Assembly (NCBI RefSeq): GCF_018389705.1
Contig: NZ_CP065581.1
Span: forward strand, 390,001 to 422,000
DNA from: Mycoplasma mycoides subsp. capri
GTDB taxonomy: Bacteria > Bacillota_I > Bacilli_A > Mycoplasmatales > Mycoplasmataceae
Length of the DNA stretch: 32,000 nucleotides
Direction: 5' to 3'
Shown: piece by piece, positions 4,763 to 13,311 of the stretch
Layout: each line of letters opens with the position of its first letter
Numbering within the stretch: the first letter of the stretch is position 1
Made by a program: the position numbers and the translations under genes
Notes under the pieces: generated by a model
What the model saw: only the letters and a program-made list of their open reading frames with translations
The model's database searches: none
Told to the model about the DNA's origin: nothing

Positions 4763-6226
4763 ATGATTTCTTTAAAAGTTGAACAACAAAAATTTTATGA
4801 TGATGGTTCAAACTTAATACTAGAAACAAAAAAGAATAAAATAGTATCTATTTATAAAACTATTGTTCTTTCATTCTTTTTTGTATCAATGTCATTGTTA
4901 CTATTTTTATCAAATTATTCAATCTTTAATAAAAATATAGAAAATTCATACCAATTTTTATTTAATTTTTCTCAACCAGCATTTGAACAATATAACTGAG
5001 TAGTACTTTTTAGAATTTGTTTATTAGGATTTTTATATTTTTATGGATTAAAAAAAGCTTATATAAATATAGAACCAAATAAACCATATTTAAAACAATA
5101 CACGATTTGATTTAGTTTATATTTAATAACTAGTATTTCTGCATTTATATTATTTTTTACTTATTCACCACTAGAAGCACAAAATATAATTAATCTAATT
5201 TATAGTTTAATCGGTTTATTATTAATAGATATTTCTTATGTGTTATTTAAATATAAAACAAGAAAAAAACTAAACCCATTAGTATATCAAAATAAATGAA
5301 GTTTAATTGTTGATTTAATTAGTAGAACAATTTTAGTTAGTTTAGTTTTAGCTATTTTTCTAGTTTGAATAAATCAAGGTGGAACAACTTATGAAATGCT
5401 AGCTAATAATAAGTTTTATGAATATGTATTAAACTTATTTGGAATTAAAAGCTTTTTAAACTTTTTAATTATTATTACTAGTTTTATATTTATTGGTTTA
5501 TTGTTTATTGGATTAAATATTTATACTATTTTAAAAATAGTTTATAAACAATTTAGTTTTGAAATTATTAGAGATAAGTTGAATTTTTATTTAACTGGAG
5601 TAATTGTTGTATTTATTTGATTAATAAGTTTAGTGTTTTTAAAAATACCATCAACTCATGAAGTATTTGTAAAAAATGATAACTTAGAATATTTATACTT
5701 ATTATTTTCTTTATTAAACATTATTATTACTATTGTTTATTTATGATTTAAACAATTTAAAAATAGATTAAATAGTCCTTTAATTAAAATCAGTTATTTA
5801 ACTATTTTTCATTTTATTATTTGAACTGTATTTATGGTTGCTAGTTTTTTAACAACAAGTTCAACTGTAAGTATGATTAATTTATTAATTACTATTGTTT
5901 TAGTTGCTATTAGTTATTATTGACATATTAAATCATCAAGATTTAACAACTATTATAATTACTTATTAATTACTTTAAATGTAATAATGATTTTTATAAT
6001 AAGTTTAGTATTTGGATTTAATCAAATATTACTATCACATAATAATAAAAATTTATTTATTATTCCTTTAAAAGCTAATTTATTACAAATTATAAGTATT
6101 TTTATAGTAGCATTTCAAATTATTAATGTAATTTATCCATTAACTTATATGTTAATTACAAGTATTAAAATTTCTAAAACTTTTAAAAAGGAGCTAAATC
6201 ATGAAACACAAAAACAAACAAACTAG
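4763..6226 (+). CDS. F1-like ATPase cluster gene 1: polytopic membrane protein (~12 predicted TM helices), no recognisable Fo a/c similarity
   Basis: This joins track ORFs 4763-4999, 5396-5620 and 5987-6226 (same phase) through TGA=Trp codons, and I checked that no TAA/TAG intervenes. It encodes 487 aa. RBS AAGGAG sits upstream of ATG 4763. There are about 12 hydrophobic 18-25-aa stretches, e.g. IVLSFFFVSMSLLLFLS, FLNFLIIITSFIFIGLLFIGL and LLQIISIFIVAFQIINVIYPL. The stop is TAG 6224-6226. Confidence 0.8.
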
Positions 6227-6695
6227 CGATCAATCTTTTATGGTTTTTGATTTATATGAAAAAATAGTTAATGCTAATAATTACATTGATTATCAAAAAC
6301 TACTAGCAACAGTATTATTAGAAAATCAAATCGGATTTGATTCAAAAGTTTATAAAGAATTTGAAAACTCTTATTTACTAGCTTTTAAAAATCATTTTGA
6401 TATTGTTTTAAATGATTTTGTAATTACTTTTAATGTTAATTTAAAAATTAGTAGTGATTTATTAGTACCAATGTTAAGTGAAACTGAAAGTAGTAATACT
6501 GAAGCAATTAATTTAAAAACAAGTAATAATGAACAATATCAAAAGTTTTTAACTACTTATAATAACTATTTTATTTCACTAATTAAACAAGGTTTTTGTG
6601 TTGAAATTTTTCCAAATGTTATTTTATTTAAATCAAAAAACACAGATCATTTAAAAATAATATTTGATAAAACTAAAGTTTTAACTAGAGGTTAA
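6201..6695 (+). CDS. F1-like ATPase cluster gene 2: 164-aa soluble protein of unknown function (possible stalk/adaptor component)
   Basis: This is an intact ORF in the track. A strong RBS AAGGAG lies 7 nt upstream of ATG 6201. The start overlaps the end of the preceding gene by 26 nt, and the stop TAA 6693-6695 is 1 nt before the next start. It has no hydrophobic segment and no motif I recognise. Confidence 0.7.
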   Translation: MKHKNKQTSDQSFMVFDLYEKIVNANNYIDYQKLLATVLLENQIGFDSKVYKEFENSYLLAFKNHFDIVLNDFVITFNVNLKISSDLLVPMLSETESSNTEAINLKTSNNEQYQKFLTTYNNYFISLIKQGFCVEIFPNVILFKSKNTDHLKIIFDKTKVLTRG

Positions 6696-6696
6696 T

Positions 6697-10380: not shown

Positions 10381-10384
10381 AACG

Positions 10385-11932
10385 ATGAATATAAAAACAA
10401 ATAGCAAACATACATCACCTAAGATTAGTGCAATCTATGATTATATTGTTGAAGTTAAGGGTGAGTTTGACTATAAACAACAACAAATTTTTACTTCTAA
10501 AAAAAATAAAGAGGCAAGATTATTTTTAATTAGTGCTACAAGTGATACTGCTTATTTATTAGCTAATTTACAAGCTTTAAAACTAACTATTAATGATGAA
10601 TTAGAATTATTAGATAATACTAATGAGATATTTACTTCAAATGAATATTTTGGAAAAGTAATTGATATTTATGGAAATATCATTTTACCTGAACCAAAAA
10701 CTGTTGTTAAAAAAGCTGAAGATATTTCAAGTGAAGTTTTTAAATTAAGTCATGATTTAATGAAAGTTCAAAGATTAAATGAACAATTATATACTGGTTT
10801 AGCTGCTATTGATTTATTAATTCCAATTGGTAAAGGACAACGTGAGTTAATTGTTGGAGATAGACAAACTGGAAAAACTCATATAGCTTTAAATACTATT
10901 ATTAACCAATCTGCTAGAAATATTAAATGTGTTTATGTTGCTATTGGTCAAAAAAAAGAAAGCATTTCAAGAATTTATAATATTTTAGCTCAACATGATG
11001 CTTTAAAAAACACAATTATATTAGATGCTCCAGCTAATAGTAGTTATGAACAATATTTAGCTCCATATATTGGAATGACTCATGCTGAAAATATTTCAAA
11101 TACTGATGATGTTTTAATTATTTTTGATGATCTAACTAAGCATGCAAACATTTTTAGAGAAATTGCTTTATTAAGTAATCGTCCTGTTGGAAAAGAAGCT
11201 ATGCCTGGTGATATGTTTTTTGCTCATTCTCAATTACTAGAACGTGCTGGATCTTATAAAAATAAAAAAACTATTACAGCATTACCAATTATTCAAACTA
11301 TTGATAATGATATTACTAGTTTAATTGCATCAAATGTAATTTCTATTACTGATGGTCAAATTGTTACAAGTAGTAAATTATTTTCACAAGGTATTCTACC
11401 TGCTGTTGATATTGATTTTTCAGTTTCAAGAACTGGTGGAAGTGTACAAGATAAAACTATTAGACAAATTGCTGGTCAAATTAATAAAACATATAGAAAA
11501 TATAAAAGACAATTGAAATTATCAATGTTAGATTATAACTTAAATAGTGAGACTGCTGATTTAATGTATAAAGGTAAAATGATTGATAAATTATTTACTT
11601 CAAAAGGATTTAGTATATTTTCATATAACTTTATTTTAATGATGACTAAAATTATTAATTGATCACTAATTAAAGATATTAAAGATGAACAAAAAGCTTT
11701 AAAATTTATTGATGAATTAATTAATAAATCAGTTGATGGTAAAAAACAATTTGAAATCATTAAATCAGGTAATAATTATGATGATAAAATGATGAAAAAT
11801 TATTTCTTATTTGCTTTAAAAGAATACTCTGATTATGTTGGATTAAATTGAGAAATTGATAATGAATATGACTTCTTATCACTAGATCAGTCATTTTTAG
11901 AAAAAACTGCTAAAAAATTAGGAGATAAATAA
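10385..11932 (+). CDS. F1-like ATPase alpha-like subunit (515 aa)
   Basis: Track ORF 10385-11662 is extended through TGA codons at 11660 and 11849 to TAA 11930-11932. It carries Walker A GDRQTGKT and Walker B-region VLIIFDDLTKHA. It also has PGDMFFAHSQLLERAG, TALPIIQT..NVISITDGQI and DIDFSVSRTGG, which are all canonical alpha-subunit signatures. Confidence 0.9.
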
Positions 11933-13311
11933 TGAACGGGAAAATATTAAGTATATCTGGTGATGTAATTGAAGTACAATTTGAAAAAAGCAATTTACCT
12001 TCAATTAATCACTTATTAACAACTCATGATAATCAAACATATTTATTAGTAAAAAGTGTTATTAATGAAACTAACATTAAAGCAATCATCATTTATGCAT
12101 ATAAACAGATTTCACTAAGCGATGAAATCATAAATACTAATAAAAGTTTTATGGTTCCAGTAGGAAGTAAAGCAAAAAACAACATTTTTAGTTTTACTGG
12201 AATTTCACTAAACAATAAAAAAGATGATAAACAAGAATATGTTGAAATGAATTCAACTATTAATAATAAAAGAGAATTAAGCACTGAATTTGAACTAATT
12301 GAAACAGGTATTAAAGCTATTGACTTTTTTATTCCAATTTTTAAAGGATTTAAATTAGGAATTTTTGGTGGAGCTGGTGTTGGTAAAACAGTTTTAATGA
12401 AAGAAATTATTTTTAATGTTAATAATAAATATAAAAACACTTCAAATATTTTTATTGGATCAGGTGAACGTTCAAGAGAAGGTATTGAACTTTATGATGA
12501 ACTAACTGAATCTAATTTAATGAAAAACTCAACTATGTTTGTTTCTAAAATGAACGAATCTCCAGGAGCACGTATGTCAATTGTTCCAATTGGAGTTACT
12601 GCTGCTGAATATTTAAGAGATGTTAAAAAAGAAGATGTTTTATTATTTATTGATAATATTTATCGTTTTATTCAAGCAGAAAATGAAGTAAGTGCTACAC
12701 TTGGTAAAAAGCCTTCAGTTGGTGGGTATCAATCTACATTAGAAAGTGATGTTGCAAATATTCAAGATCGTTTATTTAAAAATAAAAATGGAGCGATTAC
12801 TTCATTTCAAACTGTGTTTTTACCAATGGATGATTTAAGTGATCCATCAGCTGTAGCTGTATTTAATCACTTAGATTCAAATCTAGTTTTATCAAGAGAT
12901 CAAGCTGCAAAAAATATTCTTCCAGCTTTTGATCCACTAGCAAGTTCATCTAGTTCAGTTGATGAAACTTTAATTGGTAAAAAACACTTTAATGCAATTA
13001 TTGAAGTTAAAAGAATTTTAAAAGCTTATAAAGATTTAGAAGATGTAATTTTAATTTTAGGATTTGATGAATTAGATGCTGAAAGTAAAATCTTAGTTAA
13101 AAAAGCTTTACAATTAGAAAACTTCTTTACTCAATATTTCTTTATGACTGAACAATTTACAAAACAAAAAGGTCAATATGTACCTTTAAATGAAACAATT
13201 GATAGTGTTATTAGAATTATTGAAGGTAAATATATTAAACAATCTCCTGAAATCTTTTCATATATCGGTTCAGCTTTAGATTTAAAAACTGATGAAGAAT
13301 TAGGATTATAA
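11932..13311 (+). CDS. F1-like ATPase beta-like subunit (459 aa)
   Basis: This is an intact track ORF, and its ATG overlaps the upstream stop (TAATG). It carries Walker A GGAGVGKT and the catalytic-Glu motif GSGERSREG. It also has DVLLFIDNIYRFIQAENEVSATLGKKPSVGGYQSTL, ITSFQTVFLPMDDLSDPSAV and a DELSEED-region variant DELDAES. These are all canonical beta-subunit signatures. Confidence 0.92.
   Translation: MNGKILSISGDVIEVQFEKSNLPSINHLLTTHDNQTYLLVKSVINETNIKAIIIYAYKQISLSDEIINTNKSFMVPVGSKAKNNIFSFTGISLNNKKDDKQEYVEMNSTINNKRELSTEFELIETGIKAIDFFIPIFKGFKLGIFGGAGVGKTVLMKEIIFNVNNKYKNTSNIFIGSGERSREGIELYDELTESNLMKNSTMFVSKMNESPGARMSIVPIGVTAAEYLRDVKKEDVLLFIDNIYRFIQAENEVSATLGKKPSVGGYQSTLESDVANIQDRLFKNKNGAITSFQTVFLPMDDLSDPSAVAVFNHLDSNLVLSRDQAAKNILPAFDPLASSSSSVDETLIGKKHFNAIIEVKRILKAYKDLEDVILILGFDELDAESKILVKKALQLENFFTQYFFMTEQFTKQKGQYVPLNETIDSVIRIIEGKYIKQSPEIFSYIGSALDLKTDEELGL

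Follow-up and report, generated by a model that had tools for sequence, protein, structure and literature searches.

A seven-gene Type 3 "F1-like X0" ATPase operon of Mycoplasma mycoides subsp. capri and its link to the MIB-MIP system

The stretch of DNA analyzed here (hereinafter the window) comprises 32,000 nucleotides (nt) of the Mycoplasma mycoides subsp. capri genome (NZ_CP065581.1, positions 390,001 to 422,000) and contains, at 4763–13311, seven co-oriented genes on the plus strand that encode proteins of 487, 164, 303, 147, 775, 515 and 459 amino acids (aa), numbered 1 to 7 below. The identity of this cluster as the Type 3 "F1-like X0" ATPase operon of M. mycoides (MSC_0618-0624 / MMCAP2_0575-0581) is practically certain. 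The explanation that best accounts for the observations as a whole, and that we hold with considerable confidence, is that this operon is transcribed together with the adjacent genes for MIB (Mycoplasma immunoglobulin-binding protein) and MIP (immunoglobulin (Ig)-specific serine endopeptidase) and energizes the MIB-MIP system. The system itself is not new, as its description dates from 2012 and its functional assignment from 2026, in the same species and for the same genes. The only additions made here are a tentative structural link between the DUF2714 protein and GliD, the lack of a conserved intramembrane carboxylate in the family of the 12-transmembrane (TM) protein, and a strain-specific frameshift in the MIP gene.

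Identity of the cluster

The cluster can be identified because six of its seven proteins pass the curated NCBIfam models of the MSC_0618-0624 family F1-like ATPases, the seventh is a DUF2714 protein, the beta-like sequence matches Q6MSZ8 (MSC_0618) and entries from M. mycoides subsp. capri and JCVI-syn1.0 with 100% identity, and positions 1–13,195 of the window are 100% identical to JFAE01000009.1 (assembly GCA_000590435.1). The M. mycoides members are named "MSC_0618/0619 family F1-like ATPase" by NCBI. It was on this seven-gene cluster, in M. mycoides subsp. mycoides, that Type 3 was named and an "F1-like X0" ATPase proposed (Beven et al. 2012, PMC3369863), on the grounds that alpha, beta, gamma and epsilon are present, that a, b, c and delta are absent, and that two unrelated membrane proteins are encoded instead; a horizontal origin of the cluster was proposed in the same paper. 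A sequence-only reading of the present DNA had arrived at an ATP-hydrolyzing F1-like head that acts on a non-Fo membrane module. This proposal is supported and re-derives the published model, the "X0" name included, so that the recovery of that model validates the reasoning from sequence.

The open reading frames (ORFs) were re-called with translation table 4 (TGA = Trp), given that table 11 breaks the genes into pieces; the seven genes contain 20 in-frame TGA codons, eight of them in gene 1, and table 4 is needed before any ORF-based check of such DNA. Under this code, the seven ORFs, their sizes, their order and the motifs quoted in the earlier reading are all recovered exactly. The intergenic spacing within the cluster ranges from -26 to +4 nt, too little to accommodate a small gene missed by annotation, and a GGAG-like motif precedes each gene. 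This tight packing is that of a tightly coupled operon. Hydropathy analysis finds approximately 12 segments in the 487-aa protein, three in the 775-aa protein and none in the other five.

Link to the MIB-MIP system

A functional link of the cluster to MIB-MIP is very probable, and the evidence is largely experimental and published. The cluster genes share an operon with the two genes that precede them, expression of all the proteins was shown, and beta is cytoplasmic; membrane ATPase activity drops to 20% in a transposon mutant of the alpha gene (Delta619), and complementation recovers part of it (Beven et al. 2012, PMC3369863). In M. mycoides subsp. capri, either deletion of the cluster or the beta substitution K152A abolishes MIB-MIP antibody cleavage and agglutination protection, MIB and MIP are present in the mutants in wild-type-like amounts, and, once cross-linked, the full set of seven subunits is purified together with MIB and MIP (Berlureau et al. 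2026, PMC12994834). The mutated residue K152 is the Walker A lysine located in this window. The output of the ATPase, which the sequence-only reading had left as unknown, is therefore known by now to include a requirement in antibody cleavage by MIB-MIP; that reading drew no connection between the cluster and the genes for MIB and MIP that immediately precede it.

In the window, the MIB reading frame extends without interruption from nt 3 to its stop codon at 2124–2126. The C-terminal 297 aa match TIGR04526, "putative immunoglobulin-blocking virulence protein", with 402.8 bits (cutoff 150), and in the identical record (L023) MIB is a protein of 750 aa with the MIB_arm, MIB_M1 and MIB_M2 Pfam domains. 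The MIP gene is broken into a 221-aa fragment and an open stretch of 653 codons in another frame: the frame-3 part stops at 2814–2816, and the remainder runs in frame 2 to 4732. The N-terminal fragment corresponds to positions 1–216 and the C-terminal part to positions 329–740 of the NF045842 model, MIP_near_MIB (508 bits, cutoff 305), and the Pfam DUF31 peptidase family also matches MIP. The deletion was placed by comparison with the 97%-identical locus L019, which reads TTTGACAAATTAG where this window reads TTTGA-AAATTAG. In the identical record JFAE01000009.1, this 221-aa fragment is likewise called, and MIP is intact, with 858–861 aa, in seven other M. mycoides assemblies. The frameshift reflects either a genuine pseudogene or an error of assembly.

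For a survey of genomic linkage, the loci of 13 other mycoplasma species were fetched via the beta protein and annotated independently. All seven genes are found in the same order in nine of these loci; three loci are interrupted or incompletely detected, and in the remaining one only alpha, beta and a gene-2-like ORF are found together. In 10 of the 13, gene 1 is immediately preceded by MIP. The survey independently confirms the published linkage, in which MIB-MIP and the cluster occur together in 126 of 126 strains (Berlureau et al. 2026, PMC12994834). The locus of Mycoplasma sp. 332 (CP198998.1, 7976–11374) contains only a DUF2714-like gene, alpha and beta, with the other four genes not found within 10 kb upstream, and resembles the published split arrangement of the M. 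arginini group.

The F1-like head and shaft

Along its entire length, the beta-like protein can be aligned to F1 beta subunits of solved structure (E ~1e-100); it contains all the catalytic motifs, namely GGAGVGKT at 146–153 (with the Walker A lysine K152), GERSREG from 178 (catalytic glutamate E179), the Walker B motif LLFID (D241) and DELDAES at 379–385. The alpha-like protein contains GDRQTGKT at 158–165 and keeps the arginine finger R349 (SVSRTGGS); the catalytic glutamate is replaced by glutamine (AIGQKK), as in non-catalytic F1 alpha subunits. These motifs confirm that the residues required for nucleotide binding and hydrolysis are present, with the catalytic ones intact, and the published mutant data show the catalytic competence that had been read from them. 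The delta-binding N-terminal helix is missing in the alpha-like protein, as seen from its alignment, which begins at canonical position 28–31 (residue 12 aligns to this part of the atpA model); a published AlphaFold 3 (AF3) comparison likewise notes an alpha subunit without the delta-binding N-terminus.

Both proteins pass the models of their own families, NF045936 for alpha (891 bits, cutoff 520) and NF045934 for beta (808 bits, cutoff 570). The scores fall below the cutoffs of the atpA equivalog TIGR00962 (326 vs 484 on alpha), the atpD equivalog TIGR01039 (440 vs 463 on beta), the models TIGR03324 (301 vs 750) and TIGR03305 (398 vs 752) of the N-ATPase, an alternate F1Fo type labeled "Type 1 prime", and the FliI/YscN family models (180 bits at best vs 379.5).

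These results bear on the notion that the cluster is the housekeeping F1Fo ATP synthase equipped with very divergent Fo subunits. Public records often name the products of genes 6 and 7 "F0F1 ATP synthase subunit alpha/beta", a misleading name for a complex without Fo, and the legacy NCBIfam equivalog NF005523, which carries an "F0F1 ATP synthase" name, scores 848 bits on the alpha-like protein; both would speak for this notion. However, in addition to the atpA and atpD scores, homologs of a, b, c and delta are lacking, and the cluster is non-essential, a transposon mutant and a full deletion both being viable. According to the literature, mollicutes other than phytoplasmas all possess a distinct Type 1 operon of eight genes, whose eight products are found in the proteome of M. 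mycoides subsp. capri. Furthermore, in one M. mycoides assembly (L020, CP011264.1, 4044–5830), an insertion sequence (IS) element with a transposase pair (DDE_Tnp_1) replaces genes 1 to 3 and the epsilon-like gene is cut to 101 aa, which makes this locus a natural knock-out, consistent with a non-essential cluster. Taken with all this, the housekeeping assignment appears vanishingly improbable.

The 303-aa protein scores 384.5 bits with NF045933, MSC_0622_gamma (cutoff 95), and shows a weak but colinear match to PF00231 (E 3.8e-4). A per-member Pfam scan detects PF00231 in nine of 12 members of the family (best E 2.4e-10), which supports the gamma-like identity; a search of PDB with the gamma family profile gave no match. 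The case of the 147-aa protein is less straightforward. The curated model NF045935, MSC_0621_epsi, is passed with 137 bits (cutoff 42), and the epsilon-like assignment draws on this model and on published structure predictions. By contrast, a sequence-level link to canonical epsilon is not found by phmmer against PDB, by a 12-species profile against PDB or by a per-member Pfam scan, and hhalign comparison with two canonical epsilon sequences, one of which was Escherichia coli AtpC, yields a probability of at most 2.4%.

The membrane partners

No Pfam or NCBIfam match to the Fo subunits a, b, c or delta/OSCP (ATP-synt_A, ATP-synt_B, ATP-synt_C, OSCP) is found in any of the seven proteins. Profile searches that looked for such homology in the 487-aa and the 164-aa proteins, where it would count against a non-Fo module, detected none; Pfam, NCBIfam and PDB profile searches thus agree with the earlier statement that the cluster includes no Fo subunit.

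The 487-aa protein matches NF045937, MSC_0624_12TM, with 370 bits (cutoff 70) and is presumed to form the membrane core of X0, on which gamma/epsilon would dock. A search of 1.84 billion representative proteins with the profile of this family found 79 proteins; nearly all the full-length ones are 450–540 aa long and match end-to-end, and the 10 weakest full-length matches, when scanned, all belong to the MSC_0624 family. As judged from these profile matches, the family is confined to the Type 3 system. A search started from an alignment of 56 sequences found no new homologs, with the word index saturating on hydrophobic words, and the profile derived from the same 56 sequences gave no credible match in PDB and, in particular, no F-ATPase chain. 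Among these 56 diverse members, no alignment column is at least 60% acidic, and the family accordingly lacks an ion-binding carboxylate of the c-subunit type. The possibility that the 12-TM protein is a fused c-ring made of six hairpins was rejected, given that self-comparison with hhalign gives a probability of at most 14%, with no repeat and no conserved carboxylate. An AlphaFold 2 (AF2) model of the 98%-identical ortholog (P0025), built from an alignment of nine sequences, is poor (predicted local distance difference test score, pLDDT, of 62), and a Foldseek search of PDB started with this model returned only noise (E > 7).

The same observations are relevant to the idea that X0 is an ion or solute pump operating via the 12-TM protein, with an indirect effect on MIB-MIP through local ions or the membrane potential. 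Twelve TM helices would suit a pump, transport was among the outputs listed in the sequence-only reading, and R84 is fairly conserved (77%), as are several Asn and Tyr residues in or near TM segments. Nevertheless, a carboxylate of the c-subunit type is missing, Pfam, NCBIfam and PDB profile searches identify no transporter family, and both the co-purification with MIB-MIP and the strict genomic co-occurrence argue for a direct link. A pump of this kind is therefore improbable.

The 775-aa protein matches NF045829 with 486.6 bits (cutoff 210); its N-terminal signal or anchor is followed by a Gly/Ser-rich segment, then by a large domain and, at the C-terminus, by a TM hairpin, with TM-like segments at 12–30, 719–737 and 752–770. 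No relative was found in PDB. The N-terminus is rich in lysine, and the loop between the second and third TM segments contains six Lys/Arg and no Asp/Glu residues; by the positive-inside rule, an external location of the large domain is favored. The earlier description of this protein as mostly extracellular is thus backed by the positive-inside rule and contradicted by the trypsin accessibility reported in 2012. The protein is presumed to be the link between X0 and MIB/MIP. Its length varies between 764 and 775 aa among strains. The region 8190–8305 of the window (codons ~46–95 of this gene) is Gly/Ser-rich, of low complexity, and contains imperfect 9- and 18-nt repeats.

The DUF2714 protein

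The 164-aa protein had been regarded as an orphan but belongs to a conserved family: PF10896, DUF2714, matches it with an E-value of 1.7e-50 and 171 bits (cutoff 23.9), and the NCBI name for a member of the gene-2 family is "MSC_0623 family F1-like ATPase-associated protein". An AF2 model of this protein (pLDDT 58; predicted template-modeling score, pTM, 0.60) was used as the query of a Foldseek search, and the only significant matches in PDB are chains R, U, W and T of the entry 9io5 (E 2.8e-4 to 7.5e-4, probability 1.0, TM-score ~0.5), with weaker matches to chains S and V. A search of PDB with the DUF2714 family profile detects neither GliD nor any F-ATPase chain.

The entry 9io5 is the G1-ATPase twin motor of Mycoplasma mobile, which contains six copies of GliD (MMOB1620), the Type 2 gene-2 product; GliD binds helices H20–H25 of the alpha C-terminal domain, and two of the six copies are modeled shorter (Toyonaga et al. 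2025, PMC11864180). We infer that chains R–W are GliD from this copy pattern in the paper rather than from the PDB entry, as the two shorter copies fit the weaker chains S and V. The match agrees with the positional orthology of gene 2, and a published AF3 model hints at a contact between MMCAP2_0580 and the alpha C-terminus. The modeled fold, of modest confidence, suggests that gene 2 probably encodes an accessory subunit of the GliD kind that binds the alpha C-terminal domain.

GliD has been hypothesized to derive from a b-delta fusion (PMC11864180), and the cluster may therefore keep a very remote remnant of the stalk. Whether this extends to the DUF2714 protein as a remnant of the b/delta peripheral stalk is rather doubtful on the model at hand, and such a homology was not found stated in the two papers on Type 3 (PMC3369863, PMC12994834). 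If true, DUF2714 would be a stator element or a self-association site of the Type 3 complex, and the earlier statement that the cluster has no equivalent of the peripheral stalk would not be strictly correct, which would be a caveat and not a refutation.

The resemblance to GliD also brings up the Type 2 gliding motor (G1-ATPase), with which the cluster shares its seven-gene architecture and which provides the best PDB relative of the alpha-like protein (the G1-ATPase alpha, 9io5_D). The gliding-specific models glide_MMOB1660 (394 vs 600) and glide_MMOB1670 (350 vs 850) both remain below their cutoffs, the 459-aa beta-like protein aligns only to positions 229–684 of a 705-position model and lacks the N-terminal extension of ~230 residues, and phylogeny in the literature separates Type 2 from Type 3. 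M. mycoides is not known to glide. Identity of the cluster with a Type 2 gliding motor is hardly conceivable.

In M. capricolum and M. feriruminatoris, there are two DUF2714 paralogs each (P0039 and P0040; 84–87% and 59% identical to that in the window) and two 12-TM paralogs each (P0030 and P0031; 88% and 48% identical), and these sequences suggest a second, divergent Type 3 cluster in both species.

Proposed mechanism

The Type 3 complex would be built around a cytoplasmic F1-type hexamer, in which three catalytic beta-like and three non-catalytic alpha-like subunits surround the gamma-like shaft, with the epsilon-like subunit at the foot of the shaft and the DUF2714 protein on the C-terminal domain of alpha, similarly to GliD in the related gliding motor. 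Such a complex would hydrolyze ATP and make none because the peripheral stalk (b/delta), the a subunit and the c-ring are all missing. The foot formed by gamma and epsilon may act on the 12-TM protein, and torque or a conformational change could cross the membrane via the 12-TM and 775-aa proteins to reach MIB-MIP at the cell surface. MIB-MIP would need the energy to process antibodies, the likeliest role being to open the stable MIB-antibody-MIP complex and reset it. The latter step follows the proposal of the authors of the 2026 study that the energy of ATP opens the very stable complex and resets it (PMC12994834). Rotation, the coupling path (from gamma/epsilon to the 12-TM protein, then to the 775-aa protein and to MIB/MIP) and the reset step are our inferences, and the mechanical-reset model in particular falls a little short of an even bet.

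Several points weigh against this account. The cleaved antibody that the reset model predicts on mutant cells was not detected, a caveat raised by the authors themselves, and the F1-like part readily comes off the membrane part (PMC12994834). The published AF3 models of the whole complex are of low confidence, and our own models of the 12-TM and DUF2714 proteins (pLDDT 62 and 58) appear poor, so that the match to GliD, which also lacks sequence-profile support, can be considered suggestive only. The trypsin data of 2012 place residues 182–231 of the 775-aa protein in the cytoplasm (PMC3369863). Finally, the MIB-MIP pair of this particular strain may be non-functional because the adjacent MIP gene is frameshifted.

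The strongest competitor of the mechanical reset is a role in which the ATPase exports, inserts, positions or activates MIB/MIP (or the 775-aa protein) at the surface, much as F1 relatives of the FliI/FliJ type energize the gate of a secretion system. No cleaved antibody is seen in the mutants, not even bound to cells, and the authors of the 2026 study consider "disorganisation of the system"; the alpha- and beta-like proteins show clear, sub-threshold similarity to the FliI/SctN export ATPases, and the 12-TM protein has the size and topology of a transporter. On the other hand, MIB and MIP are present in the mutants in wild-type-like amounts, MIB and MIP, when purified, function in vitro with no ATPase present as far as forming the stable complex, and the searches revealed no homology between the 12-TM protein and any known translocase or transporter. 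On balance, export or assembly is unlikely to be the function of the ATPase; nevertheless, a role in assembly or positioning stays a live rival because the predicted cell-bound cleaved antibody is unseen.

If the Type 3 ATPase energizes MIB-MIP in the way outlined, the head of a rotary ATPase has been re-used in minimal bacteria to power an extracellular machine that destroys antibodies, and the Type 3 ATPase could be a target for drugs or for vaccine attenuation. How X0 is built, by which path coupling occurs and what topology the 775-aa protein adopts are questions that the field has already posed.

Genomic neighborhood

The coordinates of the ATPase genes and of the MIB and MIP genes are given in Table 1.

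Table 1. Genes of the Type 3 ATPase cluster and the upstream MIB and MIP genes in the window
Feature	Coordinates	Strand	Product	Family or model	Remark
MIB	3..2126	+	Mycoplasma immunoglobulin-binding protein	TIGR04526	5' end beyond left window edge
MIP	2151..4732	+	Ig-specific serine endopeptidase	NF045842	split by 1-nt deletion at ~2809
Gene 1	4763..6226	+	487 aa, ~12 TM	MSC_0624 / MMCAP2_0581 family; NF045937	
Gene 2	6201..6695	+	164 aa, soluble	MSC_0623 / MMCAP2_0580 family; PF10896 (DUF2714)	
Gene 3	6697..7608	+	303 aa, gamma-like central-shaft subunit	MSC_0622 family; NF045933	
Gene 4	7608..8051	+	147 aa, epsilon-like subunit	MSC_0621 family; NF045935	
Gene 5	8053..10380	+	775 aa	MSC_0620 / UU052 family; NF045829	
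Gene 6	10385..11932	+	515 aa, alpha-like non-catalytic nucleotide-binding subunit	MSC_0619 family; NF045936	
Gene 7	11932..13311	+	459 aa, beta-like catalytic subunit	MSC_0618 / MMCAP2_0575; NF045934	

The G+C content of the window is ~24%; it drops to 17–18% over 5001–8000, i.e., over genes 1 to 3, and is 25–28% in the flanks. The low G+C content of genes 1 to 3 may come from proteins rich in Phe, Ile, Asn and Lys or from the horizontal origin proposed in the 2012 paper. A promoter/terminator scan found no terminators and 83 promoter-like sites vs 113 expected, a number that is uninformative in such AT-rich DNA.

Downstream of the operon, on the minus strand (13367–21334), there are three tandem paralogous genes for lipoproteins of the MOLPALP family (844, 829 and 831 aa; TIGR04547), which are convergent with the end of the ATPase operon; one to three copies are found at the same position in other strains. 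Further along, a heat-shock and housekeeping block occupies 23725–31596, with clpB, hrcA, grpE, dnaK and dnaJ followed by rpsB and the start of tsf. Truncation of clpB was considered and rejected, as the frame is open 5' of the first ATG. A Val codon located 93 codons upstream of this ATG would give a protein of 713 aa, the length found in other strains, and clpB thus probably encodes 713 aa, with a non-ATG start near 23725, presumably GTG.

Comparison with known systems

The closest counterparts are the Type 3 clusters of M. mycoides subsp. mycoides PG1 (MSC_0618-MSC_0624) and subsp. capri GM12 (MMCAP2_0575-0581), which have the same gene order and sizes and MIB-MIP directly upstream. The differences from the Type 3 clusters of other strains are at the strain level only, i.e., the 1-nt frameshift in MIP and a 775-aa protein that is 5–11 aa longer.

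The Type 2 G1-ATPase of M. mobile (MMOB1610-1670; 9io5) is encoded, as published, in a seven-gene cluster with the same order as Type 3. The alpha subunits of the two types are each other's closest solved relatives, both systems lack Fo and the peripheral stalk, and the GliD fold of the Type 2 gene-2 product is probably shared by the Type 3 gene-2 protein. The latter is, however, only 164 aa long vs ~35 kDa in Type 2 and would lack the long dimerizing helix. The N-terminal extension of the Type 2 beta subunit recruits PGK and builds the twin motor, whereas the Type 3 beta has no such extension; the gene-5 proteins of the two types are unrelated in sequence, and the outputs differ as well, i.e., antibody processing in Type 3 vs leg movement in Type 2.

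With the canonical F1Fo ATP synthase (atpIBEFHAGDC, Type 1), the Type 3 complex has in common a head of the alpha3beta3 type, the Walker A and B motifs, the catalytic glutamate, the arginine finger and a DELSEED-like loop, as well as a gamma-like shaft that is detectable with PF00231. The differences are the lack of a, b, c and delta, a distinct gene order, dispensability and a function limited to ATP hydrolysis. Finally, the FliI/FliJ and SctN/SctO systems combine homologs of F1 alpha/beta with a gamma-like stalk on a non-Fo membrane machine and provide a precedent for the re-use of an F1 head. FliI and SctN are homohexamers of a single ATPase, whereas the Type 3 head would be an alpha/beta heterohexamer with gamma and epsilon.

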